A DNA stretch of 64,000 nucleotides from an uncultured Pirellulaceae bacterium (GCA_964625155.1 CAZVBC010000001.1:1559-65558), one strand, 5' to 3'. Positions 6,686 to 26,890 are shown, counted from the stretch's first letter. Notes: a model not told the origin generated them from the letters alone. Made by a program: numbers and translations.

Positions 6686-9600
6686 TTATCTTAATTCATG
6701 ACGATGATGTTCTTGGCCGTATGGGTCTAGATGCGCTAATACTAACTGAGCTTGTGAGTCGCGGTAACTCAATTCTATTTCTAAATACCCACCTGCCACC
6801 CGCAGATACTGATGCATGTCGGGGCGGAAGTCATCTTTCTTCCAGCCACTTGCGTGACGATTGCTGACTGGGCCCACCGAAAACTCATGAAGTTTGGTTT
6901 CTGGATCGACGCTGTGATATTGCCAATGTCTGTCACCACAAACGACCACAGTATTAGAAAAACTCGCGAGCAACTGGCGAATCTGGCGCCCTTCGTGAGT
7001 GAAATTGTCGTTCGAGAGATTGTCGTGTTTGTTTTCGCGATCTGGTCCAACGATTGGCGTTGGCGAAATAATTACTCGAAATTTCGCGGTTGATGTTCTA
7101 AGTGTTTGTTCCAACCATTTTTTTTGCTCGGCACCCAAGATCGTTTTGTCAGGTGTATCTTTTGCATTGTTGGGACTTCGGTGATCGCGTCCCTCAAGCA
7201 TCCAGATTTGCAGGTCTCTTCCGAGCTGAATCGTTCGGTAGGCTGGCGATGGCAGGGCGGTTTGTTGAACAAAAATTCGCTGACCATCTTCAAAGCGAAA
7301 ATCATCCGTCCACTGGAAATGCTGGCCAGGCCAACTGTCGTTCACGTACGTATCATGATCGTCTTTCAAAAAGTATGTTGGCACTTGCTTGTGGAAATTA
7401 ACTAGCGTCGGTAGCGAATAAGTACGTTGCCAGTGGTAGTTCGCCAGATCGATACTGCGTGCCAACGCGTCGTAATACACTACATCTCCTGCCAGGACGT
7501 AGGCATCGGTCTTGCGATCCAGCATGGTACGGTATACATCGAAACCGTGCGCACCATCTCGATCGTTGAATTCTTGACACGTACCCACAGCCAGACGAAA
7601 CGGCTTGGCTTGGTCTGCTTCCGGCAACGTCCTCAAGGAACCGGCCAGCGTTGTTGAAACCGACGTCGCTCCAGGTGCACGTGCTTCGACACGGATTTCA
7701 TACTGCGAATCTGCAACCAGCTCCTGCATTGGCAATAAACATGAAAAATCCGATTGATGATCGACTTTGGTCCAGGCAGAGTCCGTCCATGGAGCTTCTC
7801 CAGCTCGGCGAAATCGCAATCGCATTTCTGCGACAACACCTGGTACAGCAAACCTGAGACCATCAACTCCTGACTCAGGAAGCAGTGGTCCGGAGTTTTG
7901 TTTGGCATTCTTCTTGCCAGCCACTTTTCGAAACCGAACTTCCGGCAGATCGCCAAGATTTGGCAACGGCCAACGAGTCGCGCGAGCCCAAATCGTCGCC
8001 TGCTTCTGGCCAACTTCGACAATGCGAAATCCCATACTCTGCTGCGGCGCAATGGCTGTATCCACTAACAATGTAGGCATCGAGCGATCTGTAGAAGTGG
8101 ACTCCACGACGCGGAGTGTTCCTTTGGCAGCAGCCAGCAAACTACCATAGTCGCTAACTCTCATGATTCCAGGTAAAGCAGGTGCCAAGAGTGGATCGGT
8201 CGGATAGTTTGAAACGTGCAGCCTTGCCAGCTTAGGCAAATTTCGCGATGGTGAATTGGCTATTTCCAGGCCAGCAATAGTTGCCAGTGGTGACCAGCGG
8301 TCATGACCAACCATGTCCCAAGTCGATGCTCGATCTGATTGTTCGCTTAACGCAACGTACATCTTCAAGATATCTACCAGAGCTAGCCCTTCAACCGACT
8401 GCCCCAGCAAATAGAAGCGACGCATGATCTGTGTTTGACTGCGCACGGTGGGGCCCCATTGCGTCCAATCGTGACCACGTGGTAAGAGTACAAAATGCTT
8501 GGCTGCATTGGATTTTGCTAACCTGCGAGGCAAATCTCCAGTAGTAAGTTCGCGACCAATCGCTGCGGAATCCGTCAGGGTCGAAGTTGTGACCACACCC
8601 ACGTGAATCATGTTTTCAGTCCCTGAAACCGAAGCGGTAGATTCCAATTCCAGCCACCGAGATTTCCATGGATGGTCAGAATTTAGCTCGCGCAGTCGCC
8701 AACGCCAGGTTCCATGTTGTCCTTCAAGTACAGTTGTGTAGCCAACGGAGGGTTGGGCAAGTGCCTCGGCCAGAGGTACGGTGCGTGCAATCGCGGTGCG
8801 CCACTGGTCTTTCCACAACTGAGCAGCTTGCGAAACATCCGTTACCGGTGATGCTGCGCTAACAAACCAGTTAGAAGCGCTGGTCACTTTCTCGTCGAGC
8901 GGCGACTCTTTGTCAAAAACTGCGAGCCGTTCCATCGGGAACTCTTTTAGCGCCGCACGCTCGACTATCGGCTCAACGCCTGTCAAGTGCTTCAGTAACC
9001 AACGAAATGCACCGACTTGCAATTCTTGCGTATCTTTGTGTGGACCCGGTGTGATTAGGACACCATATTTATCGGAGGCTTTAAGTGCTTCATAGACACG
9101 GCGCACTTGCATGTGTGTACGCACCACACCCACCATCGGAAAGATTCCATCGGTGTCGGAGTTCGCAAGTAGTAATGCGCGGGGTGCGATCGTTGCAGCC
9201 AACTTTGGATAGTCCCAGCCGTGATAGTTGACGAAGTACATACAATCACAATGACCCTCCACACAACCATTCACGACGTGGTCTTCCAAGTCGGTAATGC
9301 CGGCAACTGGCACTGCCGCTTTGATGCGTTCATCCAAAGCAGCAGCGAACCAACTGTAAGCACCTCCTCCACTCCGTCCGGTAATTCCGATGCGGTTGGC
9401 ATCGACCTGCTTCAGCGATTGCAAATAATCGATTCCGCGAATTGCGTTCCAAGCTTCGACCCCTGCAGGTGTGTAGCCACGACTGATCCAGTCCCAGCGC
9501 CCCATCTTGTATGTTCCATGATGCTCGCCGTGGAATTCACCAAGCTGAATGGTGTCGATGATCAAGCATACCGTTTGATGGCGGGCAAACCACAATCCGT

Positions 9601-10078
9601 GATGTTGATAGGACGTCTTGTTGCCAAGCAAGCGCCCTTGATCAGTAATGTTGGCATGACCACATACGTACAATACCGCTGGCCAACCTCCTGCTGGGAC
9701 CTCGCCTTTGGGCAAGTACAAATTCGCGCCGACATACAACCCTGGACGCGATTGGTAATGTAGTCGCTGTATCGTCAATCCATCGTGCTCGAACGATTCT
9801 ACGATGGTAGCCTGCAAGTCTGTGCGCTCAGGTAACGGGGCCAACCCCAACATCTCCTTTAGTTCTGCGTGCCACTTTGCCCGAGTCGTCGGCCAGTTCT
9901 CGCTGGTCACGGCCTGAAGGTCTGCTGCGCTTCGCGCGGCTATCCTCGCGACTTCGTCGTGCAAATACTTTTTCCATCCAGGATCTTGAGCCAATGAACT
10001 CGTCCGAAATACCAACACCGTCGTAAATGCAAACACCGCTATCCGAAAAACAATGCTGATTCTATTTCGTTGGTTCAT
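6686..10078 (-). CDS. Secreted fusion protein: N-terminal alpha/beta-hydrolase (acetyl-xylan-esterase or dienelactone-hydrolase-like) plus C-terminal PhoD-like metallophosphatase
   Basis: A 1130-aa ORF with signal peptide 'ISIVFRIAVFAFTTVLVFRTSSLAQ'. The hydrolase nucleophile elbow is 'GITGRSGGG'. The C-terminal half carries PhoD-type blocks: 'VLAGDVVYYDA', 'LKDDHDTYVNDSW', 'ILGAEQKKWL', 'VVVCGDRHWQYH'. Confidence 0.75.
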   Translation of the reverse strand: MNQRNRISIVFRIAVFAFTTVLVFRTSSLAQDPGWKKYLHDEVARIAARSAADLQAVTSENWPTTRAKWHAELKEMLGLAPLPERTDLQATIVESFEHDGLTIQRLHYQSRPGLYVGANLYLPKGEVPAGGWPAVLYVCGHANITDQGRLLGNKTSYQHHGLWFARHQTVCLIIDTIQLGEFHGEHHGTYKMGRWDWISRGYTPAGVEAWNAIRGIDYLQSLKQVDANRIGITGRSGGGAYSWFAAALDERIKAAVPVAGITDLEDHVVNGCVEGHCDCMYFVNYHGWDYPKLAATIAPRALLLANSDTDGIFPMVGVVRTHMQVRRVYEALKASDKYGVLITPGPHKDTQELQVGAFRWLLKHLTGVEPIVERAALKEFPMERLAVFDKESPLDEKVTSASNWFVSAASPVTDVSQAAQLWKDQWRTAIARTVPLAEALAQPSVGYTTVLEGQHGTWRWRLRELNSDHPWKSRWLELESTASVSGTENMIHVGVVTTSTLTDSAAIGRELTTGDLPRRLAKSNAAKHFVLLPRGHDWTQWGPTVRSQTQIMRRFYLLGQSVEGLALVDILKMYVALSEQSDRASTWDMVGHDRWSPLATIAGLEIANSPSRNLPKLARLHVSNYPTDPLLAPALPGIMRVSDYGSLLAAAKGTLRVVESTSTDRSMPTLLVDTAIAPQQSMGFRIVEVGQKQATIWARATRWPLPNLGDLPEVRFRKVAGKKNAKQNSGPLLPESGVDGLRFAVPGVVAEMRLRFRRAGEAPWTDSAWTKVDHQSDFSCLLPMQELVADSQYEIRVEARAPGATSVSTTLAGSLRTLPEADQAKPFRLAVGTCQEFNDRDGAHGFDVYRTMLDRKTDAYVLAGDVVYYDALARSIDLANYHWQRTYSLPTLVNFHKQVPTYFLKDDHDTYVNDSWPGQHFQWTDDFRFEDGQRIFVQQTALPSPAYRTIQLGRDLQIWMLEGRDHRSPNNAKDTPDKTILGAEQKKWLEQTLRTSTAKFRVIISPTPIVGPDRENKHDNLSNDNFTHEGRQIRQLLASFSNTVVVCGDRHWQYHSVDPETKLHEFSVGPVSNRHASGWKKDDFRPDMHQYLRVAGGYLEIELSYRDSQAQLVLAHLDPYGQEHHRHELR

Positions 10079-10368
10079 GTGTAAACTCCCGACAAATCGT
10101 AACCGATTACAGCTTGACGCTACTTAATGCAGATTCTTGACGCAGTCATTATTGCATCCAGCGAACTTAATGGTGCCGTATTGTACTCCATCAGCTCGTT
10201 TTTTTTCACTCCCGAGTAGCAATGCCTTGTGCTGCGTCCAGACTAAATAAGCATTCAATGTTTGCCGCGACGATGGAATCCTTGCCATCGCATTCCTCAT
10301 TACGCGCCCAATCACTCGTCACGTAATACACGATACTACCATGCGACTTGAAAGAACTTTCGACACAA

Positions 10369-11124
10369 TCAATCGTCGTGAAGTTCACCAACGAGATGCT
10401 GCAACATACGTGCGGGGCTATCAAGAAATGATCTTGTGATGCGATAGTGTTCAGTATCCTCGTACGCGATCGGCATGATGCCTTTGTCGCTGAATGAGTA
10501 TATCTTGGCATGTGGGTAACTCATGATGATCGGTGAGTGTGTGGCGATCACCAACTGTGAATCCTGTTGCACGAGGCTATGCAGCAGCACGAGGAATTCC
10601 AGTTGACGTTGGGGTGAAAGCGCGGCTTCCGGTTCGTCAAGAAAATAGAGACCTTGCGAAAAGCGGCTCTCCACCAAGGCCATAAACGCTTCGCCGTGCG
10701 ATTGTTCGTGTAGCGACTTGGATCCATAGCTGGATTGCACACCAAGATTTTCGATCTCAGTTGCAACATTAAACAGACTTTCGGCCCGCATGAACCAAGC
10801 ATCTGGCACGAGAGCATGAAAGCGGCGTACGATCAGTGCCGCGTGCAATTGCGAATGACTTTCCCGAGTCGCAAACGTCATGTTACGACTGCCGCCTTCT
10901 GCGTTCAAACCATTCGCGATCGCGATGGCTTCAAGCATCGTCGACTTGCCGGACCCATTCTCTCCCACAAAAAACGTTACCTTGGGATGCAATTCGAGCT
11001 TCGAAAAATTCTGCAGCGACGGTAATTTAAACGCGTAGTGTTCTGGACCAAAGATTCGTGTTCGGTCCAGATAAACCAACTCGATAAAAGGCCCCGGAGT
11101 AACACCTTGTTTGAGTTTTCTCAT
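10369..11124 (-). CDS. Stand-alone ABC/SMC-like ATPase (COG3910-like AAA_21-type)
   Basis: Walker A 'GENGSGKST', signature-like 'QSHGEAF', Walker B 'LYFLDEPEAALSP', H-loop 'VIATHSP'. It is 251 aa with no transmembrane or substrate-binding partner adjacent. Confidence 0.8.
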   Translation of the reverse strand: MRKLKQGVTPGPFIELVYLDRTRIFGPEHYAFKLPSLQNFSKLELHPKVTFFVGENGSGKSTMLEAIAIANGLNAEGGSRNMTFATRESHSQLHAALIVRRFHALVPDAWFMRAESLFNVATEIENLGVQSSYGSKSLHEQSHGEAFMALVESRFSQGLYFLDEPEAALSPQRQLEFLVLLHSLVQQDSQLVIATHSPIIMSYPHAKIYSFSDKGIMPIAYEDTEHYRITRSFLDSPARMLQHLVGELHDD

Positions 11125-11236
11125 GCGTCAAAGGTCGTGTTAATGGCTGGTAAAAATCCGCTGGGTCTCGAGCCAGCGAAATCCGTGGCACAATGGTTTT
11201 GCAATAAAGCAACACTGCATCAGGAACCGTTGGTTG

Positions 11237-11932
11237 TTATCCAAGCATTGAGCTGCGAGTGAATTCCTCAATAGCCTTCCAAACTCGCGCGGGTTGCGTT
11301 TCGAGAATCATATGCGAGCCTTCGATTCGACAGATTTCCAAATCTGGGCGCAATTGTCGAATTGCATTCACGGAGTGCTCCTTTATTAGTTTATCTGCCG
11401 TGGGATGCAGGTAGAGTACGGGGCATGATAATTGCTTAAGTTCTTGTTGAACATCGATCCGCGTTGTTTCCCTTATTCGCCCAGCGAGAATCCGGGATTT
11501 TGCGCGCCGGATCACTGAACGCAATAATTGCACAGTTGCCGGATCAGCAGAGAAGCCAAGCAAATAGTACCGGGCAATAAACGAAGGGATCGGAAAGCGG
11601 AGCATTGTCGCGAGCGGTAAGTATCGAATCCATGCTCCAACCGGAGGTCGAGCAAATGTAGCGACCAGAATCAAACAACGAATTGAGTGATGATGCTCTG
11701 CGGCCAGTTTGATCGCCAAAGGTCCAGAGAACGACTCAGCGATCAGGATACATACACGCGACGCGTCGAATTGTTTCCCCAACTGGGAATATATCGTGGC
11801 ATAGTCCGCACCGTCTGGCGGCAAGTCGACCAATGTAACGTGATAAGATGGTGGTGCAGCGTCGCGGAACGACCTGAGCATCGATGTCGTTCCATCAAGT
11901 CCAGGAAGTACCCATGTCGGTATATCAAGCAT
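11237..11932 (-). CDS. Small alpha/beta-fold hydrolase
   Basis: 231 aa with nucleophile elbow 'IAESFSGPLA' and 'WVLPGLDGT' in the oxyanion region. A C-terminal 'EGSHMILETQP' is typical of the catalytic-His region of alpha/beta hydrolases. Confidence 0.7.
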   Translation of the reverse strand: MLDIPTWVLPGLDGTTSMLRSFRDAAPPSYHVTLVDLPPDGADYATIYSQLGKQFDASRVCILIAESFSGPLAIKLAAEHHHSIRCLILVATFARPPVGAWIRYLPLATMLRFPIPSFIARYYLLGFSADPATVQLLRSVIRRAKSRILAGRIRETTRIDVQQELKQLSCPVLYLHPTADKLIKEHSVNAIRQLRPDLEICRIEGSHMILETQPARVWKAIEEFTRSSMLG

Positions 11933-11973: not shown

Positions 11974-12837
11974 TCATACCATATCTGAATCGGCTGGCAC
12001 TTCAGCTTCGCGCAATTTGATGTGTACCTCGGTGCGATTCTTGTCGTTAACACGAGCGTATTTGAGGACATCCACCATATCCAAAACAAGCACTAACCCA
12101 AGTCCACCGACCTCTAGGTCGTCTGGATCATCGGTATAGTCCAGTTGTCGATTCCCTTCACGTGGATCAAAAGGCCTGCCATCATCTTCAATCAACAGAA
12201 CAATATGCTCGTCCACAATACTCAAACTGATGTCGATTAAATGTTCATCAAAGTCCATGTAGGCATAACGGATGACATTTACTACTAACTCTTCTAGCGC
12301 AAGATTGACGGTGTAACCTGAACGATACGGAGTCGAATGAGCTTCGAGGAACTCTGCCGCTTTGGCGTAAAGCCCCGGCAATTCGGAGGTATCATTCTTG
12401 ATCGATACTTTGATGCCAGCTACAGCTTGGCCCGTTCCCGTTGCAGTGGTTTCAATACTTGCTGTGGAACTACCGATACTGGGCGCAATGATGGCCGCAT
12501 CGATACCTAATAATTGCAGTGCCTCTTCCATGCCGGCTGCGATGGGCATGACTTTGTCCATCTTCGATGTGCGCAGCACAGATTCGACCATCTCCTGAGG
12601 TTTGACCAGGACCAGTTTGCAACCTGCCTTTTTCAGTATCTTGGTGTTGGCAAACAGAAAGCCAATCCCTAGCGACGACATAAACGTCACGCCGGACATA
12701 TCGACAACGGTCGGCAAACCTCGATCCGTAGCAACTTCAGAAAATCGCTGCTCAATTTCTTCGACACCTGTGGCATCTAACCGGCCAATCAGTGAGACAT
12801 GAGCGAATTCAGTACGATCAATAGCAATTAGTTCCAT
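11974..12837 (-). CDS. Single-chain partner-switching protein: STAS (anti-sigma antagonist) domain fused to an RsbW/SpoIIAB-like HATPase_c serine kinase
   Basis: The N-terminal half 'LIGRLDATGVEEIEQRF...VVDMSGVTFMSSLGIGFL...KLVLVKPQEMVESVL' matches a STAS fold, including a Ser at the usual phospho-site region. The C-terminal half has 'LALEELVVNVIRYAY', 'IEDDGRPFDP' and 'GGLGLVLV' (N, G1 and G2 boxes). The ATG at 12837 is preceded by GGGAGG; the track start at 12852 is a TTG. Confidence 0.75.
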   Translation of the reverse strand: MELIAIDRTEFAHVSLIGRLDATGVEEIEQRFSEVATDRGLPTVVDMSGVTFMSSLGIGFLFANTKILKKAGCKLVLVKPQEMVESVLRTSKMDKVMPIAAGMEEALQLLGIDAAIIAPSIGSSTASIETTATGTGQAVAGIKVSIKNDTSELPGLYAKAAEFLEAHSTPYRSGYTVNLALEELVVNVIRYAYMDFDEHLIDISLSIVDEHIVLLIEDDGRPFDPREGNRQLDYTDDPDDLEVGGLGLVLVLDMVDVLKYARVNDKNRTEVHIKLREAEVPADSDMV

Positions 12838-13086
12838 GGTTTGACCTCCCAAAAAATATGGCGCATTTTATAGCACAATCAAGCGTATTGCATCAGGCGC
12901 CATGCGAATCCTTAATACTTCCCTGTACTCGCATAGGTGTCGGTTCTTTGCAGGTTGCGACGGAACGAAATCTCTGGCAAGACGTCGAGTCAGCAGGTGA
13001 TTGTCCAGATAAAACACACGGTAGAATTCGCTGACCAATAAACCCTGCCGATAAAAGCGTATGATTCGCCCAACGCAGTGCAATGA

Positions 13087-14451
13087 TCAACGCAAAACCT
13101 TGGTCATAAAATCGATCGATTCTTTGAATTCGAAGTAATTCGTGTGATGAACTCGATGGTTCATGCCAAAATTCAATTGGTGCGACTTGGGAATCGGACC
13201 AGTTTGTTCCCCGAGGTCCAGCATTGATGATGTATCGACGACCATGTCATGTGGCCCTGGAAAGATCTTGTCGGCTGCCAGCGATTTAACACGAGTATTG
13301 ATTTCGGTGAAATATTTCCAAAACTCCCAGCCAACATCTTTGGGGCGGAAACTGCTTGTCACAAAGTAGTAATTCGATAGATGCGCCGGGCGATTGCGCA
13401 GTTCATTGAGTTCGTAATTGTTCTGTACTCGCGATTGCGCATCCAGGCCAGGAACTAGCGCGATGACTGCGTCCGCGACCGGCGTCTTGGACACGATCGA
13501 AGCGGTCGAGCAAACCAACGACATCAAGAACTGGGCAACTGACAAGTACGGGACAATCTTCGAAGCGACATCAAGTCCCTTGTCCACAACTTGTCCTATA
13601 TTCGTGAAATAGTCGATGGCTGCTCGCACGCGATCAGGTGCCGCTAAGCTAGTGCCCGACAAAGGCGCTCCGACAAAAATGACCTTGCCGCGCTGCTCAG
13701 GACGACGACAAGCCACTTCGTACCACCAGCGTGATACCAACCCACCACGACTGTGACAAACAATATCGATTTGTCCTGTATTCGGAAGGAGCGATTCTAG
13801 TTGCAAGGCATTGATGAGCGGACTTCGCGACAGCGTACCGTGGTTGAAGCACAAGATCGCATCGTACCTTTGGCTAGCCCAAGCGATAAAGGACTCGTTG
13901 GCACCTTGGACAACAGTGTTCAGCGACTTGACACAGTTTTGGCAGTTACTAAACGTGCCGTGGATTATCAATAGGACACGGCCCCAGTTTTTGCGCCCGC
14001 GATTTACTTCGACCAGTTGCCCTTGCGACAATTGCCAGAGACCTTGTTTGGGAGTCAGCCGTTCGTCAATCCAAGCAAGATAACGATATACATCGGAAAG
14101 CCCAACGGTATCGAACGTAAATTGCTCGACAATCATTTGGCTATCGATCGCCGGAGCGCGCCGCGCGGCTCGTTTCGATCCAAGGGACGCTGCGGCAACA
14201 GCGCTTCCTGGATGCCAGCGCAAGACACCCTTTGGATCCACGGCCAAGGTCATGATAGCCTCTCCCTCATCCGCTCTGGAAAGTCGTTTTTTTCGCAGGG
14301 CGGCAGTCGACATTCTTCTTTTTCCGGAAAACGTCTCACTGCTGACATCAGGGGCCACGCCAACCAACTCGCCTGAAGATCGCAATCGCTGACGAAGCTC
14401 CTCAAGTTGGCCAATCGAAAAGTGAGCTTGAGATATTGGGGACGCGGGCAT
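13087..14451 (-). CDS. Orphan serine alpha/beta-hydrolase (lipase/esterase-like) with an Arg/Lys-rich N-terminal extension
   Basis: 'VLLIIHGTFSN' (oxyanion-hole region), 'DIVCHSRGGLVSRWW' (Ser nucleophile elbow), 'VIFVGAPLSGT'. Late Asp and His candidates are 'HDMVVDTSS' and 'HRVHHTNYF'. There is no signal peptide. The ATG at 14451 shares one base with the upstream gene's TGA, and GGAGG lies 9 nt upstream. Confidence 0.55.
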   Translation of the reverse strand: MPASPISQAHFSIGQLEELRQRLRSSGELVGVAPDVSSETFSGKRRMSTAALRKKRLSRADEGEAIMTLAVDPKGVLRWHPGSAVAAASLGSKRAARRAPAIDSQMIVEQFTFDTVGLSDVYRYLAWIDERLTPKQGLWQLSQGQLVEVNRGRKNWGRVLLIIHGTFSNCQNCVKSLNTVVQGANESFIAWASQRYDAILCFNHGTLSRSPLINALQLESLLPNTGQIDIVCHSRGGLVSRWWYEVACRRPEQRGKVIFVGAPLSGTSLAAPDRVRAAIDYFTNIGQVVDKGLDVASKIVPYLSVAQFLMSLVCSTASIVSKTPVADAVIALVPGLDAQSRVQNNYELNELRNRPAHLSNYYFVTSSFRPKDVGWEFWKYFTEINTRVKSLAADKIFPGPHDMVVDTSSMLDLGEQTGPIPKSHQLNFGMNHRVHHTNYFEFKESIDFMTKVLR

Positions 14452-16688
14452 CAATTAACCTCCGGAAGGGGCAACACATTCTTTTGACGCGCTCGAACGA
14501 CGTCGATCATGCATGCAAACTCTCGCCGATCTACCAAGTTTTCACCGCCAGCATCAATGGCTTGCTCGAGTTTCTTTTCGCTGGTCAGCCATACCGATTC
14601 TAGTGGCACTAAGTATCCGTGGTGAATAGCGTCCAAGATGTGATCGTAGCCTAATTTGTTTAGCATCCATTGAAACTTTGCGTCCTGAGCATCCATGCGT
14701 CCGCGTTCGCTGAAGTCGGCAGCTCGGTCCAGTTTTTCGACTACAGCCTCTTCCCAACCGCCCCAGAATTTGCTCTGTGCCATTGGAGTTTGCCAATACC
14801 CTGGAAAAGCATGTCCATCTAGCAGAAAGATCACCGGATAAATGTCGATCTCTTCCAAACAAGCAGCTAAAAGGACTGTCAGATCGAGACAAGTTCCCGT
14901 ACGGCTTTCAAGTATTTCGCTAGGTGTCCGAATACGCTGTGAGCCAGTCGTGTATGTCGGCGGCGGATTGGTATACAGCAGTGCGCAATCGTATGCCAGT
15001 GCATCCCAGATCGCTTCAACTTGATGAGTAACCGCCACCCAACTTTCTTCCTTAACGTCGTCAACTTGTTGATAGCCATCAAACCCCGACGCATGATCAG
15101 ACGTCAGTCTCTTGAGCCACAATTTAGCTCGATCTTTGATTTTGCCGATCGCAGGATCGCGTGGTTGTACAAACGACGGCAACCAATGCCGTTCATCATC
15201 GGTGTCATTCCATTCATTAATCGGCAGTATTCGCAATACATAATTGTGGTCAAGGACCAGATTGCCTAGCCAATCAATTGAAATCTTCAGCGATGTATTT
15301 ACCGCTTCTTTGAATCGTCTTAATTGCGAGCTTATCAACGATAGTGGCAATTCAGTGCGCAAGTCGATGCCCGCTCCGCTCATCGAGAACCTCTTGGTTT
15401 GCTCAAGGCACTGGTCGCCCAAACTGAGCACCACTCGCACTTGTAAATTGTCCAGCCGCTTGCCGGTTCGATTATGAACGTAGAACTGTTTGAATAAACT
15501 CCGTCCATTGTGTAACAACGAGTAATTGATCTCGCTGCGAGGTTCGATTTTGATCACCAAGTGCTTTTCCCATTCGAATGCACCGTCCGTTACTGGACGA
15601 AAATACTCGAGCTTGCTTCCGGTCTTCAACTGCTCAGCTTCGGCGGTGATTCGCGTGCGAGTTGCAGACGCTCTTGGTAGCAACGAGTTAGCGTTCCAGT
15701 ACACGATGCCGGCGCCGGCCAGAGGCGTTCCACCGCGCATGATCGCCGACAGCGAATCCTGAAATGCTCGCGTTTCGTCATCGACCCATTTCGAGTAAAA
15801 CTCGGCAAAGAAAATCTCCGCTAACATGTCGTCGATGGTATCTTGAAAAGCCACTACCGACTGAGCACCACTGGCCAATATCAATGGCGCAATGCGCGGC
15901 GCGGAATGATATAGATTCAAGCCCACGAGACCGGGTCGAGCGTCTCCAATCGCTGTCGCCAACTCGGATGCAGACACCTGCAACTGTCGCGAATTGCGAT
16001 TCGACTTGAGGTACATGCCATCGTTAAAGCGACTGGTGTGCTCGCCAAGCAACTCGGCACCTTGGTGATTGTCCACGCCGGCAATATGAACGATCCAGGG
16101 TTTGACTCTGTGCAGCGTGGATTTAATGTCCTCAAGTGATGGATTTATTAGTTCGATCTTGCGGCCAGTCCATCGGCTCCCAGCGAGACTATGCGCAACT
16201 GACGTACGCTCGCGCGCAAATGAGTACGCTTCCCCCAGCTTACCCGGTGCTGATTCAATATAAGCGAGCGGTCGAGTCCAACCGGCAGTGGCGCCGGACG
16301 ACCGTGATTTTAATTTCAAGCGTCGCACTACAATCGGTGGCGGGGCATCTGGTGAACGTGAAAAGGCGCGGGTCAACACGAGCTCCCATGGCATAATTCG
16401 TGATTCCCAGTTTTCGGATTCCAATTTGTACGGAATCTCAACTTCGATCAATGATGCCGTCGTCAACGGACGTAGTTGTTCGTCATTAAAACCCAAGCGA
16501 CGAACTTCTTTTTGTAACAACTGACTCATCTTCGTCACATCAGCCATTGACCAATGACTGCGGTTACGAATGAGGTAAGACCAACGTATGGCAAACTCCT
16601 GGAGTACCGCTCCCTGCTTGATCTTCAGCTCAGCTCCGTTGTCCGATCGAATCGTCGCTCCGAGAGCTCCCCTTGCGAGCGTAGCCAT
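14451..16688 (-). CDS. Multidomain protein: CHAT-like domain lacking the catalytic Cys, plus a C-terminal transglutaminase-like cysteine-protease core
   Basis: 'PWIVHIAGVDNHQG' and 'LVGLNLYHSAPRIAPLILASGAQSVVAFQDTIDDMLAEIFFAEFYSKW' align by eye to the CHAT His block and Cys block, but with Tyr where the catalytic Cys sits. The C-terminus 'RTGTCLDLTVLLAACLEEIDIYPVIFLLDGHAFPGYW' is a transglutaminase-like Cys...His core. The likely start is the ATG at 16688, preceded by AGGAG; the track start at 16736 is less likely. There is no signal peptide. Confidence 0.6.
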   Translation of the reverse strand: MATLARGALGATIRSDNGAELKIKQGAVLQEFAIRWSYLIRNRSHWSMADVTKMSQLLQKEVRRLGFNDEQLRPLTTASLIEVEIPYKLESENWESRIMPWELVLTRAFSRSPDAPPPIVVRRLKLKSRSSGATAGWTRPLAYIESAPGKLGEAYSFARERTSVAHSLAGSRWTGRKIELINPSLEDIKSTLHRVKPWIVHIAGVDNHQGAELLGEHTSRFNDGMYLKSNRNSRQLQVSASELATAIGDARPGLVGLNLYHSAPRIAPLILASGAQSVVAFQDTIDDMLAEIFFAEFYSKWVDDETRAFQDSLSAIMRGGTPLAGAGIVYWNANSLLPRASATRTRITAEAEQLKTGSKLEYFRPVTDGAFEWEKHLVIKIEPRSEINYSLLHNGRSLFKQFYVHNRTGKRLDNLQVRVVLSLGDQCLEQTKRFSMSGAGIDLRTELPLSLISSQLRRFKEAVNTSLKISIDWLGNLVLDHNYVLRILPINEWNDTDDERHWLPSFVQPRDPAIGKIKDRAKLWLKRLTSDHASGFDGYQQVDDVKEESWVAVTHQVEAIWDALAYDCALLYTNPPPTYTTGSQRIRTPSEILESRTGTCLDLTVLLAACLEEIDIYPVIFLLDGHAFPGYWQTPMAQSKFWGGWEEAVVEKLDRAADFSERGRMDAQDAKFQWMLNKLGYDHILDAIHHGYLVPLESVWLTSEKKLEQAIDAGGENLVDRREFACMIDVVRARQKNVLPLPEVN

Positions 16689-17051
16689 GATTCTCCTCTC
16701 AGCACAGCTAAAATAATTGTGCTTGTTGTTTTGCAACGCCTAATTGGATAGCGCCACCACTATCGATTATTGCGGAAAGAGCCACGTTGTTGGGGCGAAA
16801 TCGTTTCACTGCGTGCCCATCAGCACATGTGGTTAAACGCGGCTGAATGACAACATTGCCCGGTAGCGCTATTCTGCCGCTCGCCTTACGAACCTATTTG
16901 GCGTGCAAAATAGCGCTTGGCAACTAAGCTTGGGGACTCGTTCTGCTTAGATTTAGTCAACCGGCTCAAACCACAGAACCACTAGAGATTGCCATTCGAG
17001 CGATCTTGCAGGGTCACATGAGCGCAATCAGTGTCGATTGGCAATTTTGTG

Positions 17052-17561
17052 CTAGACGAGATCTTGTTTGCGGCGCAATCGCGACGATTGGCGGGAACAG
17101 GCTTCGCAAACTCCCTGGATGATAAATCGGTGGCTGCGCACACGAAAGCGATGCTGTTTGGCGACATCGTCGCGCAATTGGATCAAGTTCTCGTTTTGAA
17201 ATTCAAGCAGGCTATGGCATTTCACACAGTACAAATGATCATGCTCGGGATAACCGTAATCATGCTCATACACGCTGCGACCATTCAATTCGAAACTGCG
17301 CAATAAACCCGCATCGACAAATTCTTTTAATGTGCGGTAGACAGTTGGACGGCTGACATAATTGTCATGGCCTTTGCGAGGCAACTGGTCGATCAATTGG
17401 TCTGCATCAAAATGTTCGTGGCGACTAAAGACTTGCTCGACCAGGAATCTTCGCTGTTCGGTAATGCGCAGCTTACGACTCTGCAAGTACTCCTCAAACC
17501 TTTGGATGGGAGACTGTGAGACCACCACAGCGTCAAGTTGAGAAGAGTTGTCGTCGGTCAC
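17052..17561 (-). CDS. fur: Fur-family transcriptional regulator
   Basis: 'RITEQRRFLVEQVF....HFDADQLIDQL', 'VSRPTVYRTLKEFVDAGLL', 'HDHLYCVKCHSLLEF' and a C-terminal 'CEAC' are classic Fur DNA-binding and metal-site motifs. The start is a GTG. Confidence 0.9.
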   Translation of the reverse strand: MTDDNSSQLDAVVVSQSPIQRFEEYLQSRKLRITEQRRFLVEQVFSRHEHFDADQLIDQLPRKGHDNYVSRPTVYRTLKEFVDAGLLRSFELNGRSVYEHDYGYPEHDHLYCVKCHSLLEFQNENLIQLRDDVAKQHRFRVRSHRFIIQGVCEACSRQSSRLRRKQDLV

Positions 17562-22215: not shown

Positions 22216-24177
22216 TTAGCGCTGAGAAGAAGTTGTGTCGTGCAAATAGGCTAGCAATTCAAAAATCTCGTCTTTGGTGAAATGGTCCATTAGTGCCGAA
22301 GGCATAAGAGATTTAGGGGATTTGAGCATCTCTTCGATCTCTTTGCGCGGGATCTTGGCCGGTGTCTTCTGTTCAGGGCTGTTCATTAACGAGACAAAAT
22401 TCGCATCTTCGGCGACGACCACACCCGAATAGACTTTTCCAGATTCGGTCAGCACCGAATGTACAGCGTATTTGGGTTCAATTCTATGCGATGGATCGAG
22501 TATTTCGCGAAGCACCGCAGCTTGGTCACCTTTCCATCGAGCGACAAGATCGGAGAGGTCAGGTCCTACTAATCCGCCCGCGCCACGGAATTTGTGACAT
22601 TGAGCACAAGTTGCTTCCTGAAAAATGCGAGCCCCAATCTTTGGATCGCGGCCACGCATTCCAATCGACAACTCGCTGAGTAGATCCTCAGTTTTCCAGT
22701 TCTTGACAAACGAACGATTGTTGCCGATCGGGTCTACCGGAGGCTGGCCCGTTTGTTGCCAAGTGTCCAAGTCCGCTACCACAACCATGACGCCATACAT
22801 GCGCATCCAGTGATTGGGGAAAGTGCATACAAACGGATACTCGTCAGGTGCCTGAGGCGCGTTAAACGTCATGCGTTCGGATTTCCCAGCCGAGATCATC
22901 GAGCTGGCAAACAGCACTTTGTCTGACTTGGGTACATACTGCTTGCCATCTGTTGCCTGGTCGGGTGCCATCATGGCGGCCTGTAAGGCTACTTCCTTCA
23001 GAAAGCCAGGCTGCGTGATAACCAAGTTGTGAGGCATCAGATCATTGTTCAGCAATAGTAACTGAACGGGACGTCCGGCTTCAACAGCGAAGAACTTGAT
23101 ATCGTAACGCATTTCGTCTTCAACCGTACGAATGCGAATCAATCGAACGGAGATCTCGCGCATGCGCTGACGATAGGCTTTGGCAATTTCGGCGGGTACA
23201 TTTGACAACAAGCTATCAAACAACTGAGATAGATCCACAAAGCGATCGCTAGTACGATCGGCGGCAGGTGTGGCTTCCGCGATTTCCAGCAACCTCAAGG
23301 CAAGAGGTTGGCAAGTGGCGGCGGGGCGGTCCGATGTTGGGATGCTCGCTAATGTGCGAACTGCAACGTCTGACAGTTCAGCTTGGCCAACCAATTCCGC
23401 CACGCGTCGAAACGTATCGGTAAGTTCAACCGTTAAGGAAGCGAGCGTTTCGACCGCAGTCTGCCGAAGTATGCTTGGAGACTTGTCGTCAAGCTCGGCA
23501 ATCACCCATTCACGCAATTTGTTGCGTTGCGAAGGGGCTTGTACCCAAGGAATGGCGGCGATGAAATCGACTTGACCTGAAACGTCCTTTGACGTCAATC
23601 GCTGTGCCAATTCGGCTTGGCCGGCCGAGATTAAAGCGGCCAACGCAACTCGACGCTGTACTCCGCTGGACGATTGAACCTTGTCGGTAAACAACTGCAA
23701 TTGCTGCTGCAAAGTTGCAGGTGCTTGAGCCAGCAACAGTTGTGAAAGTTCGCGAGCAATGCGTTGACTTTCATGATCGGTTTTCAGCAATGGTAAAACA
23801 CCGAGCAATTCAGCAGAGAATTGTGATTTGCGAATGGTTGCCAGTGCATCTGCCGCTTGTTGGCGTTCGCTGGAAGGCATACCTGGGCGAATAAGAATTT
23901 CGGTATGTACCGGAGCGTACTTGGCATCATCGGTCCCTCGATCAACCAACAACAATTGTGCGTTAGTCAATCGTTTTAGTTGGTACTCGACGATGCGTGG
24001 GCTCTTGTCGAGGAAAATTCGAGGTTTCGCGACTGTGTCTTTAGCGATTGTGCCTTCTGCATGAAGCTCAGCTTGTCCCTGACTGTGAACCGTCGACGCG
24101 TCAGATAAAACAACGGTCAAGCCACAGAGCGTGCTGGTAAGTGTACTTAGAAACGGTCTATACAGACGTATCATGCG
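22216..24177 (-). CDS. Secreted HEAT-repeat / cupredoxin (azurin-like) / PVC-type c-type heme-binding domain protein
   Basis: Signal peptide from the internal ATG at 24177 ('MIRLYRPFLSTLTSTLCGLTVVLS'). Type-1 copper ligand pattern 'MPHNLVI' ... 'CTFPNHWMRMYG'. Heme motif 'CAQCHKF' followed by 'GPDLSDL', as in the Pirellula/Verrucomicrobium heme-binding domain. Confidence 0.8.
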   Translation of the reverse strand, partial: RMIRLYRPFLSTLTSTLCGLTVVLSDASTVHSQGQAELHAEGTIAKDTVAKPRIFLDKSPRIVEYQLKRLTNAQLLLVDRGTDDAKYAPVHTEILIRPGMPSSERQQAADALATIRKSQFSAELLGVLPLLKTDHESQRIARELSQLLLAQAPATLQQQLQLFTDKVQSSSGVQRRVALAALISAGQAELAQRLTSKDVSGQVDFIAAIPWVQAPSQRNKLREWVIAELDDKSPSILRQTAVETLASLTVELTDTFRRVAELVGQAELSDVAVRTLASIPTSDRPAATCQPLALRLLEIAEATPAADRTSDRFVDLSQLFDSLLSNVPAEIAKAYRQRMREISVRLIRIRTVEDEMRYDIKFFAVEAGRPVQLLLLNNDLMPHNLVITQPGFLKEVALQAAMMAPDQATDGKQYVPKSDKVLFASSMISAGKSERMTFNAPQAPDEYPFVCTFPNHWMRMYGVMVVVADLDTWQQTGQPPVDPIGNNRSFVKNWKTEDLLSELSIGMRGRDPKIGARIFQEATCAQCHKFRGAGGLVGPDLSDLVARWKGDQAAVLREILDPSHRIEPKYAVHSVLTESGKVYSGVVVAEDANFVSLMNSPEQKTPAKIPRKEIEEMLKSPKSLMPSALMDHFTKDEIFELLAYLHDTTSSQR

Positions 24178-24199
24178 TTTGATTCCGCAGTGTTGTTCG

Positions 24200-26890
24200 C
24201 TACAGTCCCTTGGATTCCAATTGGCGCACAGTCTCGTCCAGAGCGTACTGGAGATTGTCATCCATTTCGTGATTTAGTACGTCGAGGACCGCCTCTTGAA
24301 CATCACTTGCAGGTAGAAAACTACAAGCCCGAACAGCTTCGAGACGCACTCTAGGATGGTCGTCATTGAGCCGTTCTTTGACGAGTTTTACGGTTTCCTT
24401 GATCTTATCTCGCCAAAAGCACAAAACGCGAGTGGCGGCCGCTCGTGCGCGAGGTTCAGCACACGCCAGCAATTCACGCAGCAGCGACTCATTAACAATG
24501 TTATGAGATTGATGAAGCCACAGCCCTTCCAATTTCAACTGGAAGAATAGTGGATCATTTTTGTCGAGCGACTTGAGCCACTTGTCGACCGCAGCGGTCA
24601 CCTCTTTTGAGTCGCGTTCCGCTAGTTCGCGCCGCACGCGATATCGAGTGCGGTCTTCTGGTTCTTTGAGCAACGTCAGCAATTGTTCGATGGGTTGGCC
24701 ACTTATCTTCGGCACATTCACTAGCGGTCGGTCTTTGTAGACCACACGCCAAATCCTTCCATGCGAATGATCGCGATTGGGTTCTCGCAAATTATGTTGC
24801 AAGTGTCCGATCAACGCATTATGCCAATCGACAATATACAAAGCACCATCAGGACCAAATTGCAGATCGACTGGGCGAAAGTTTCCATCCTCGCAGTAAA
24901 CTAGAGGTGTGATTTCTTTACCTTCGTAGCCAGAGGCTTTCTCCTGCATCGTGTGCTGTAACACGGATCGATCACCGATCACATTATTGATCAAAAAATT
25001 CCCTTGTGCTTCAGGTGGGAAATGCCTCGAGGCGACAATTTCACCTCCCGATGATGGACGCGTCCGCTTTTCGATGAATTGCGGAGGTTGACGCATCAGT
25101 TTTGAACCAGGGTAATCAAGTCCACGTTCCATCGCCCCGCCCGGATGTTTCGCTGGAAAATCAATGCGACCCGAAATAGGTGCGGCCCAGTAGTTGTAGC
25201 CCGGTGAGGCATCGCAGATAAAGTTCTGCCCCCATTTGTCGAATACGTGACCCCAAGGGTTTGCAAAAGCAAGAGACACATGCACTTCGAAATGTTCCGT
25301 GCGCGGATCGTATCTCCACACTCCCGCTTCAGACAAACGCACAAGTCCATACGGACTTTCTATTTGAGACTGTTTGAAGGTCCCCTCCTGAAAATAGAGC
25401 GCACCGTCTGGCCCCCATTCGAAAGCGGCAAGCCCATGATGCGAATCTGCTGTGTCAAATCCAAATAGTTTACGAATTCGCAGATCTGCCTTGTCGTCAC
25501 CATCGGTATCTTGCAGGAATAACAAGTCGGGCTGTTCAGCCACAAAGGCTCCTCCATGCCCTAGCTCAAAACCAGTGGGTTGGTGTAAGCCGTCGGCAAA
25601 CACTTTACATAAATCCGCGCGACCATCGCCATTGTTATCTTCGAGTATTAGGATCTTGTCGTCTAACTTAGTTTTGGGTTTCCATTGTGGGTAACTGGGC
25701 ATCGTGGAAACCCACATTCTGCCGCGATTATCGAAGTTGAGTGCTACTGGCTTGGCAAGTTCTGGGAACATCTCTTCTGAAGCCACCAGTTGGATTTCGT
25801 AGCCCGGCGCCATCTTGAATAGTTTTTGCTGCTCAGCAGCCGCGAGGTACTTCAGTGAGCCAAGCTTGCCAGCTTTGGCCTGGGCATCTTCGGGACCACC
25901 GACGTTGGTCTTAGGTTCGATAAACGGCAGTGTATTGCTATCGTCGATAGTCTCGGGAACACTTTCCCCTCGAGCCAAGCTCCAAATGCGGCGATCGCGA
26001 TTAACACACATCTGGTCGAGCACTTCGCGTTCGCGTTCCATCACCTCACGATTTCGATATGTTCCATCCGTGCCTGCCTCACCCCGTTTACCATAGATTG
26101 AATACCCATTCACCGCGCGATAGCGATGCCACCAATGAAAATTTTTCCCATTCACCTCGGCAAGCAACTTCGGATCAATACTCTCATCGCTACTGGCTGC
26201 TCCAAATAGCTCTTTATTGAATAATGAAACCAGTCGCCGATAACCAAGATCATTCAGGTGACAACCGTTCAGAGTCAATCGTCGGTCTGTGTTGTCGAAC
26301 AATACCTTGGTTGGCTGAAACAAATTGACAAAACCCACTTTGGTCGATTTGGCAACTTCAGCCATCGCATTGGCATAAATCAAGAGCCTGGAATTGTGCT
26401 CTTCACCGTTAGGTAAGTTGGTATCGCCAGTGTTTTCAAATGCGATCGGTGATACCAAAACAATTCGAGGTGCACCTTGCCCACTGTAGTCTTGTTTCTG
26501 AGTATGTGCGATCATTTGGGTCACGGATGACTTGAATTCTTCGAGTCCTGCTGGTCCGTGAAAGGACTCGTTGAAGCCAAAGAAGTAAATTACCACTGTC
26601 GCTTTAGAGTGTCTCAAATGTACGTCTGGCTCTCCAAAATTCATCGAACGCATGCGCATTTGAGGTTCGTCGCCAGGAAAACAAAGATTACGGACCGTCA
26701 AGTCCAGTTCTGGGAAGCGTTGGTAGAGTGATGCTTCCCAATAATTGTGATGCTGCAATCGCTCGCCGAAGGCATTCCCCACTAAGCAAATGGAGTCCCC
26801 TTTGCGAAGTTCTAATTCCGCTGCTCCGCTGACATGAGAAAAGCAAAAAAGGACCAATAACAATACTGCCAGTCGTATGCGCTGCGACAT
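24200..26890 (-). CDS. Secreted SGNH/GDSL hydrolase plus PVC-type membrane-bound-dehydrogenase beta-propeller domain plus HEAT repeats
   Basis: Signal peptide 'MSQRIRLAVLLLVLFCFSHVSGA'. SGNH block I is 'GDSICLVGN', with 'NGCHLNDLGY' as block V. 'FDNRGRMWVSTMPSYPQW...EDNNGDGRADL...DTDGDDKADL' is typical of the Planctomycete/Verrucomicrobia dehydrogenase domain. C-terminal HEAT repeat 'DDHPRVRLEAVRA'. Confidence 0.75.
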   Translation of the reverse strand: MSQRIRLAVLLLVLFCFSHVSGAAELELRKGDSICLVGNAFGERLQHHNYWEASLYQRFPELDLTVRNLCFPGDEPQMRMRSMNFGEPDVHLRHSKATVVIYFFGFNESFHGPAGLEEFKSSVTQMIAHTQKQDYSGQGAPRIVLVSPIAFENTGDTNLPNGEEHNSRLLIYANAMAEVAKSTKVGFVNLFQPTKVLFDNTDRRLTLNGCHLNDLGYRRLVSLFNKELFGAASSDESIDPKLLAEVNGKNFHWWHRYRAVNGYSIYGKRGEAGTDGTYRNREVMEREREVLDQMCVNRDRRIWSLARGESVPETIDDSNTLPFIEPKTNVGGPEDAQAKAGKLGSLKYLAAAEQQKLFKMAPGYEIQLVASEEMFPELAKPVALNFDNRGRMWVSTMPSYPQWKPKTKLDDKILILEDNNGDGRADLCKVFADGLHQPTGFELGHGGAFVAEQPDLLFLQDTDGDDKADLRIRKLFGFDTADSHHGLAAFEWGPDGALYFQEGTFKQSQIESPYGLVRLSEAGVWRYDPRTEHFEVHVSLAFANPWGHVFDKWGQNFICDASPGYNYWAAPISGRIDFPAKHPGGAMERGLDYPGSKLMRQPPQFIEKRTRPSSGGEIVASRHFPPEAQGNFLINNVIGDRSVLQHTMQEKASGYEGKEITPLVYCEDGNFRPVDLQFGPDGALYIVDWHNALIGHLQHNLREPNRDHSHGRIWRVVYKDRPLVNVPKISGQPIEQLLTLLKEPEDRTRYRVRRELAERDSKEVTAAVDKWLKSLDKNDPLFFQLKLEGLWLHQSHNIVNESLLRELLACAEPRARAAATRVLCFWRDKIKETVKLVKERLNDDHPRVRLEAVRACSFLPASDVQEAVLDVLNHEMDDNLQYALDETVRQLESKGL

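Follow-up and report, generated by a model that had tools for sequence, protein, structure and literature searches.

In a 64,000-nucleotide stretch of DNA from an uncultured Pirellulaceae bacterium (GCA_964625155.1, CAZVBC010000001.1:1559-65558; hereafter the window, meaning the whole stretch that was analysed), two adjacent minus-strand genes at 13,087 to 16,688 form a conserved two-gene unit with near-obligatory synteny. The upstream gene (gene 1) encodes a caspase-like CHAT domain that has lost its catalytic dyad, joined to a beta-sandwich and a transglutaminase-fold domain in which Cys and His are invariant, and the downstream gene (gene 2) encodes a lipase-like alpha/beta hydrolase of the Pfam family DUF7379. 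There is reason to think that the pair is a conflict module in which a protease, or at least a Cys-His enzyme, gates a cytoplasmic lipase effector, a reading to which we would assign a probability of roughly 45 per cent; the module would then most likely be of the abortive-infection or regulated cell-death type.

The pairing recurs well beyond this genome. A gene 2 profile scanned against one genome per species (185,579 species) found relatives in at least 559 species genomes, ∼0.3 per cent of species representatives, patchily distributed over at least five phyla; the carriers include Planctomycetota, Acidobacteriota, Gemmatimonadota, Verrucomicrobiota and Alpha-, Beta- and Gammaproteobacteria. 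Synteny was read from gene 2 in the 80 best loci, seven of which had less than 2.3 kb of upstream sequence and were excluded. In 66 of the remaining 73 informative loci both halves of gene 1 lie directly upstream and on the same strand, as a single fused open reading frame (ORF) in 54, as two ORFs in 10 (e.g. in Bradyrhizobium) and broken by a contig end in two, while six loci lack the gene 1 halves and one is convergent. A convergent rather than co-directional arrangement of hydrolase and gene 1 homologue was seen at L015 (6923..10458) alone. Read from gene 1, in 80 loci of the metagenome scan, a DUF7379 gene is next downstream in 67 of the 74 that were informative: gene 2 itself in 62, and in five a DUF7379 hydrolase with a different N-terminal region, leaving seven without a DUF7379 gene. 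The N-terminal half of gene 1 is represented by 349 clusters (50 per cent identity, E ≤ 1e-30) among 1.84 billion representatives, and nearly all of these show the identical fused or split architecture. Given that the pair is adjacent in about 90 per cent of informative loci, the association is more than chance, and the check named in the original prediction, whether homologues of the two genes lie side by side across phyla, comes out in its favour.

The junction of the two genes is compact. By ORF scan the full minus-strand frames run over 14451..16736 and 13087..14454. The start of gene 1 was taken as the ATG at 16688, preceded by GAGAGGAG, which is the most plausible choice because the N-termini of homologues align there, and that of gene 2 as the ATG at 14451 because an identical 454-residue protein exists in public collections. 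On the minus strand the junction reads CCGGAGGTTAATTGATGCCC; the stop codon of gene 1 (TGA, 14453..14451) and the start codon of gene 2 (ATG, 14451..14449) share a single base, the A of TGATG, exactly as had been described. A GGAGG had also been placed upstream of the second start, and it is present, but the spacer between it and the ATG is 7 nt and not the 9 nt claimed. Of 128 non-redundant related loci, 81 have a start codon in position to overlap the stop of gene 1 (by 4 nt in 77 and by 1 nt in four), which supports the proposed translational coupling. All of the peptide motifs quoted in the original prediction were found in the translations, and a promoter and terminator scan of 12700..17200 returned nothing above shuffles. 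Coordinates of the pair and of its parts are collected in Table 1.

Table 1. Features of the two-gene module, in window coordinates.
Feature	Coordinates	Strand	Description and basis
Gene 1 coding sequence	14451..16688	minus	745 residues; pseudo-CHAT, beta-sandwich, transglutaminase-fold Cys-His domain (ORF, translation, Pfam, AlphaFold2, Foldseek)
Gene 1 residues 1-340	15669..16688	minus	N-terminal extension and caspase/CHAT fold without catalytic dyad (hhalign, Foldseek)
Gene 1 residues 377-495	15204..15560	minus	beta-sandwich, first part of portable cassette; strands 377-487 (AlphaFold2)
Gene 1 residues 496-745	14454..15203	minus	helical linker and transglutaminase-fold core (alignment, Pfam, Foldseek, NCBIfam)
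Gene 1 Cys600	14889..14891	minus	invariant, 106-sequence alignment
Gene 1 His626	14811..14813	minus	invariant, 106-sequence alignment
Gene 1 Glu697	14598..14600	minus	kept in at least 90 per cent of 106 sequences
GGAGG motif and TGATG stop/start overlap	14449..14463	minus	GGAGG 14463..14459; overlap 14453..14449
Gene 2 coding sequence	13087..14451	minus	454 residues; DUF7379 lipase-like alpha/beta hydrolase (Pfam, AlphaFold2, Foldseek)
Gene 2 residues 1-155	13987..14451	minus	conserved folded N-terminal domain with basic motifs (conservation, AlphaFold2)
Gene 2 residues 156-454	13090..13986	minus	catalytic domain (invariant columns in 103 sequences, AlphaFold2)
Gene 2 Ser234 in C-H-S-R-G-G	13750..13752	minus	invariant, 103 sequences
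Gene 2 Asp402	13246..13248	minus	invariant, 103 sequences
Gene 2 His436	13144..13146	minus	invariant, 103 sequences

The CHAT-like domain that had been proposed for gene 1 on the strength of an alignment by eye is confirmed as a fold by modelling, structure comparison and profile alignment. The Pfam CHAT profile (PF12770) matches residues 179–307 with E 4e-5 and 23.6 bits, under the gathering cut-off of 24, and several homologues carry a precomputed PF12770 match. An AlphaFold2 model built from 106 sequences (predicted local distance difference test score, pLDDT, 89.2; predicted template modelling score, pTM, 0.85) is of low confidence only at residues 648–669. In Foldseek comparison with the PDB it matches SAVED-CHAT (8tl0, E 4e-8), MALT1, gingipain, the TPR-CHAT protein Csx29, the anti-sigma CHAT protein DdvA, separase and caspases; at the sequence level, the profile of gene 1 found nothing meaningful in the PDB. 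A profile of 139 non-identical gene 1 N-terminal halves, set by hhalign against four canonical CHAT domains, aligned with a probability of 98.3 per cent and E 2.6e-14.

In that alignment the canonical CHAT His-Gly falls on V205-D206 of gene 1 (V205 codon 16074..16076) and the canonical Cys on Y260 (codon 15909..15911). Position 260 is Tyr in 67, Trp in 32 and Phe in 15 of the 139 homologues, together 114, with His, Gln and Cys in just six each, and position 205 is V, F or I across the family. Since both dyad positions are replaced, the dyad is lost family-wide and the domain is best read as a pseudo-enzyme scaffold. A dead CHAT had been anticipated from the Tyr at the Cys position, and that part stands, but the loss extends to the His as well: H201 of the motif 'IVHIAGVD', formerly taken for the His block, aligns to the conserved non-catalytic His of the CHAT 'vvHf..HG' block, the true site being V205.

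The live centre of gene 1 is predicted to lie further on. The middle region, described earlier as uncharacterised, turns out to be a beta-sandwich and a helical linker that move together with the transglutaminase core, and residues ∼380–745 therefore travel as one piece, a cassette. That the core retains its Cys and His had been read from the sequence, and the assignment is supported by Pfam DUF553 (PF04473, Transglut_core clan; residues 563–622, E 2e-5, 24.2 bits and above the cut-off of 20.5) and by Foldseek matches, weaker than those to CHAT, to transglutaminase 3 (E 9e-4) and PNGase (E 5e-3), as well as by the invariance of both residues. In the model Cys600 sits at the N-terminus of a helix and His626 on the next strand. 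Asp602 is kept in at least 90 per cent of the 106 sequences, as is Glu697, and the latter may be the third catalytic residue.

The cassette occurs in three settings: as widespread stand-alone proteins of ∼365–385 residues (183 matches), fused C-terminal to the pseudo-CHAT domain as in the window, and as the N-terminal part of what NCBIfam calls 'anti-phage protein ProA' (NF058533). Residues 388–635 of gene 1 match positions 1–239 of the 1903 in the ProA profile with E 1e-54, but at 185 bits against an equivalog cut-off of 1500 gene 1 is not a member of that family, and Pfam finds in it no helicase or nuclease domain. A representative ProA, by its 2222 bits against NF058533, is WP_152309095, a protein of 1,963 residues encoded on the IncF plasmid p1 of Raoultella sp. 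DY2415 (L009, 8968..14856). Its cassette is 29 per cent identical to gene 1 and retains the Cys and His; beyond the cassette it carries DUF4011, a superfamily 1 helicase, an MTES nuclease and DUF3320, and ProA is reportedly related to the Hhe of Gao et al. 2020. The PADLOC candidate PDC-S37 matches the Raoultella protein from residue 368 on, with the cassette outside the match, and a literature search found no publication naming ProA and nothing on PDC-S37.

On many Klebsiella and Raoultella IncF plasmids ProA is annotated merely as 'DUF3320 domain-containing protein'. The sole match in the phage database, at 10320..11270 of MT836269.1 (H35; 'Bacteriophage sp.', human faecal, 11.4 kb), covers the cassette alone at 23.7 per cent identity (E 2e-17) and lies close to one end of the contig; the contig may be mis-binned or a prophage, and the match could mark where a ProA-like gene begins.

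This composition of gene 1 bears on an alternative in which the pair is a non-proteolytic toxin and inhibitor. Gene 1 would then be a stoichiometric inhibitor, chaperone or scaffold, much as in type II or type VII toxin–antitoxin pairs, its Cys-His centre would modify rather than cleave a target or would serve otherwise, and titration or degradation of gene 1 would set the hydrolase free. A 1:1 complex would agree with the translational coupling and the near-obligatory adjacency, the dead CHAT domain has the look of a scaffold for binding, and transglutaminase-fold enzymes include deamidases and transamidases. However, a protein of 745 residues with three domains and an invariant Cys-His pair goes far beyond the needs of an antitoxin, the same cassette is found in ProA without a hydrolase, and gene 1 homologues are also found where the enzyme downstream is a different one or is missing, so that we consider this alternative unlikely.

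Gene 2 had been recognized as a serine alpha/beta hydrolase with a CHSRGG elbow, and Pfam, the structural model and an invariant triad all agree. The DUF7379 profile (PF24096) matches residues 160–338 with E 1e-31 (110.7 bits against a cut-off of 33), and the AlphaFold2 model (pLDDT 87.4, pTM 0.89) has a core of the alpha/beta-hydrolase type, capped by helices at residues 272–352. The HG oxyanion motif (H164-G165), H233-S234-R-G-G, D402 and H436 are invariant in 103 homologues, giving a Ser-Asp-His triad that is intact, in canonical order and predicted to be catalytic. The invariance of Ser234, Asp402 and His436 here, and of Cys600 and His626 in gene 1, indicates that the enzymatic centres are under selection. 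The ∼150 residues that precede the hydrolase are basic and had been thought disordered, a possibility ruled out by the confident model, in which they form a helix and beta-sheet domain with pLDDT mostly 80–95; they are also conserved, and the motifs RRxR ... DGVLRW ... LD..LTP..GL are kept across the family. In variant hydrolases this N-terminal domain is swapped for other regions (that of L124 has DUF7362).

The closest PDB structures to gene 2 in Foldseek are family I bacterial lipases (E 2e-8 to 1e-6, 13–16 per cent identity), namely those of Geobacillus (L1/T1, E 2e-8), Pseudomonas and Burkholderia. These enzymes have the same alpha/beta fold, Ser-Asp-His order and helical cap, but they are secreted, whereas gene 2 has no obvious signal peptide and has an additional 150-residue N-terminal domain. 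Given that the nearest solved structures are secreted lipases, and that the Tle effectors of type VI secretion are GxSxG lipases, gene 2 might be taken for an exported antibacterial toxin for which gene 1 acts as adaptor or activator. Neither translation, however, has an N-terminal hydrophobic stretch resembling a signal peptide when read by eye, none of the inspected loci contains a VgrG, PAAR, Hcp, Rhs or immunity-like gene, and no immunity gene is conserved downstream; export of this kind is highly improbable.

Both genes have exchanged partners. DUF7379 is fused to a canonical CHAT domain in WP_051420469 of the Ruegeria pomeroyi DSS-3 megaplasmid, followed by a 986-residue AAA ATPase, and again in L025, followed by a TPR-CHAT protein, while a DUF7379 hydrolase is preceded by a CHAT protein in L089 and by an NB-ARC/NACHT-TPR STAND protein in L084. 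The canonical CHAT domains partnered with DUF7379 keep their HG and NAC/SAC motifs. At L171 (2663..11335) a gene 2-type hydrolase without gene 1 comes after a ThiF/E1-E2 (Cap2-like) protein, a Csx27-like membrane protein and an AAA_15 ATPase, in a region flanked by a type I restriction-modification specificity gene and an N6/N4 methyltransferase gene, and may represent a different system with the same effector. Gene 1 homologues, for their part, are followed at L130 (8223..9740) by an M36 (fungalysin)-like metallopeptidase instead of DUF7379, and at L007 (9215..11975) by three proteins without an assigned family, the first of them weakly caspase-like; these downstream genes may be alternative effectors. 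Combinatorial swapping of partners is, by analogy, characteristic of prokaryotic conflict systems, in which caspases, transglutaminase-like peptidases and alpha/beta hydrolases recur as effector domains (Kaur et al. 2021, PMC8195603). The swapping seen for DUF7379 and gene 1 suggests that a transglutaminase-fold centre took over catalysis from a dead CHAT domain within a DUF7379-CHAT lineage.

Comparison with known systems returned no name for the module. PADLOC-DB v2.0.0 holds zero families that match gene 1 or gene 2 at E ≤ 1, NCBIfam has no match for gene 2 and for gene 1 the partial, sub-threshold match to ProA alone, and a protein-cluster look-up for names gave none. The papers searched gave no description of the module and nothing on DUF7379; neither Kaur et al. 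(2021) nor a paper on P. aeruginosa hotspots describes the module. With the pair syntenic, no PADLOC match and only the sub-threshold ProA match in NCBIfam, the proposal of an unnamed, conserved two-gene module holds.

The nearest described relatives each share part of this design. ProA has in common with gene 1 the beta-sandwich, helical linker and transglutaminase-fold cassette with its Cys and His, but is a single helicase–nuclease protein of ∼1,900 residues without a CHAT-like domain and without a DUF7379 partner. The SAVED-CHAT proteins of type III CRISPR and of cyclic-oligonucleotide-based anti-phage signalling systems (CBASS), Csx29 of Craspase, and the gasdermin-activating caspase-like proteases have the same caspase/CHAT fold, and share the general logic of pairing a protease domain with a protein that damages the cell, here the putative effector next door. 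Gene 1 differs from these immune modules in lacking the dyad, a SAVED or TPR sensor, and CRISPR or cyclase genes, and its predicted live centre sits in a transglutaminase-type fold. Proteins of the Ruegeria pomeroyi WP_051420469 type physically couple a hydrolase of the same family (DUF7379 E 7.5e-42) to CHAT, but in these fusions the CHAT domain is canonical, the transglutaminase cassette is absent and the N-terminal region of the hydrolase is unlike that of gene 2. In NLR/STAND and Death-like-domain systems (PMC8195603; fungal SesB-like lipase NLRs, PMC12881547) an alpha/beta hydrolase is the predicted membrane-lipid effector and stands alongside caspase and transglutaminase-like peptidases, the DUF7379 parallel being L084; these two papers describe domain fusions to adaptor or NTPase modules, and a pseudo-CHAT/transglutaminase/DUF7379 operon is not among them. 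Judged from profile matches and domain content, the module falls outside ProA, outside the active CHAT peptidases and outside every PADLOC system, and it would belong with the protease-associated effector modules as an undescribed variant.

A mechanism for such a module can be proposed from what is observed, that is, from the domain folds, the conserved catalytic residues, the loss of the CHAT dyad, the synteny and coupling, and the homology of the cassette to ProA. Gene 1 would be the sensor and regulator, its dead CHAT domain a scaffold or binding surface and its beta-sandwich/transglutaminase cassette the sensing and activating part, with an active Cys-His centre. Gene 2 would be the effector, a cytoplasmic lipase-like serine hydrolase whose activity is blocked by its own N-terminal domain, by a complex with gene 1, or by both. 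Upon a trigger the Cys-His domain would process or release the hydrolase, which, once freed, would attack membrane lipids or another ester substrate. Complex formation, proteolytic activation, a lipid substrate and an anti-phage role are plausible but unproven. A more ambitious version, in which this is a widespread immune or cell-suicide system whose ProA-type cassette senses the trigger and is the catalytically live part, whose caspase-like domain now serves only as a scaffold after one protease fold took over the function of another, and whose lipase destroys the membrane, seems to us doubtful.

The conflict-system reading made in the original prediction is consistent with the sharing of the cassette with ProA and with the swapping of partners, but several observations weigh against a gated effector. 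Transglutaminase-fold Cys-His enzymes can be transamidases, deamidases or acyltransferases, and the word protease is thus not established for gene 1. The flanks were sampled as 127 ORFs, two per side of the module in 32 diverse loci and without a background control, and such a sample does not demonstrate enrichment in defence islands. These ORFs matched 137 Pfam families, none of them in more than two loci, and are mostly housekeeping (aminoacyl-tRNA synthetases, DAHP synthase, LysR regulators); few match PADLOC (Septu PtuA/PtuB, DinG, mad2/3). Mobility is likewise not evident: the gene 2-type hydrolase was not found on the viral contigs scanned, 72,556 plasmids gave just four matches, all of them variant CHAT-fused DUF7379 proteins, and the window has no anomaly in G+C content. 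A PHROGs scan of both proteins returned no match.

The same surroundings would suit a physiological enzyme pair of large-genome environmental bacteria, in which a transglutaminase-fold acyltransferase or peptidase acts together with an esterase in the regulated remodelling of membrane lipids, lipoproteins, storage esters or protein. The neighbours are mostly housekeeping genes, integrases and transposases are absent from the commonest flank families of the 32 loci, the window shows no compositional anomaly, plasmids and phages carry practically no relatives, and papain-like Cys-His folds include lipid acyltransferases. What makes a physiological pair improbable is that its occurrence, at ∼0.3 per cent of species, is patchy over distant phyla with no metabolic genes consistently linked, that the cassette is common to an anti-phage helicase–nuclease, that the partners of DUF7379 are CHAT, STAND and E1-E2 proteins, and that retention of a domain after loss of its dyad is typical of regulatory scaffolds. 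We continue to prefer a conflict module in which gene 1 gates the hydrolase.

The module is self-contained and patchily distributed. No third gene is conserved with it: the Fur and glycosyltransferase genes of the window recur in its closest relative, L011, alone, and the STAS-kinase fusion, second hydrolase, AAA ATPase and PhoD fusion found nearby have no match in the 170 related loci compared. Control of the pair by Fur and a partner switch, suggested earlier from the neighbouring genes, is not supported, as Fur is adjacent only in L011 and a STAS-kinase gene in none of the 170 loci. Fur, the STAS-kinase, the second hydrolase and the AAA ATPase were also considered as parts of the module and rejected, since none recurs outside that close relative. 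Faster evolution of the module than of its neighbours was rejected as well: against L011, gene 2 is 74 per cent identical and Fur 90 per cent, but the adjacent glycosyltransferase is 73 per cent.

Genes of conflict systems, toxin–antitoxin pairs among them, adjoin the module at single loci, HepT/MNT at L001 and PemK with MazE-PIN at L007. At L172 (7566..16911) the module, here of 812 and 466 residues, is directly followed by two large RADAR-like genes (RdrB E 1e-35, RdrA weak) and then by a HipA_2/DUF3037 pair. In Bradyrhizobium genosp. P (L006) the module is split into three genes, and 5 kb downstream, at 14999..15832, come genes with BubE and TCAD9 domains, which belong to ternary conflict systems of the Aravind type.

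Other genes of the window may be noted in passing. A 251-residue ATPase of the AAA_15/AAA_21 type (10369..11124, minus strand), encoded 2 kb downstream from the module, is present in no related locus; its N- and C-terminal ends match both ends of the much longer defence ATPases mad3, AriA, PtuA and GajA of PADLOC (E down to 2e-18), and the protein is perhaps a minimal or truncated ATPase of the OLD/ABC type. A 292-residue fusion of a STAS domain of the anti-sigma antagonist type and a HATPase_c_2 anti-sigma kinase domain (11974..12852, minus strand) is followed by a 231-residue alpha/beta hydrolase (11237..11932). At 6686..10078 on the minus strand, a protein of 1,130 residues combines an S9/esterase-like serine hydrolase (∼residues 208–270) with a C-terminal PhoD-like phosphatase, and at 22216..26890 on the same strand a planctomycete-type DUF7133-HEAT-GDSL lipase (896 residues) and a cupredoxin/cytochrome c fusion (681 residues) overlap by ∼60 nt. 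Taken together with sulfatase genes, these two proteins suggest a host of Pirellulales-like type.

Should the two genes prove to be a physiological lipid-remodelling pair, their interest would be modest. If they are instead a defence or regulated-death system, they would constitute a new family in hundreds of soil and aquatic species (Planctomycetota, Acidobacteriota, Gemmatimonadota, Bradyrhizobium and Burkholderiales) that current detection tools have missed. Cys600, His626, Ser234 and the dead CHAT dyad offer directly testable mutants. Such a system would provide a function for Pfam DUF7379 and a role for the N-terminal cassette of ProA, and would be a clear case of a pseudo-caspase scaffold joined to a second, live cysteine-enzyme fold.

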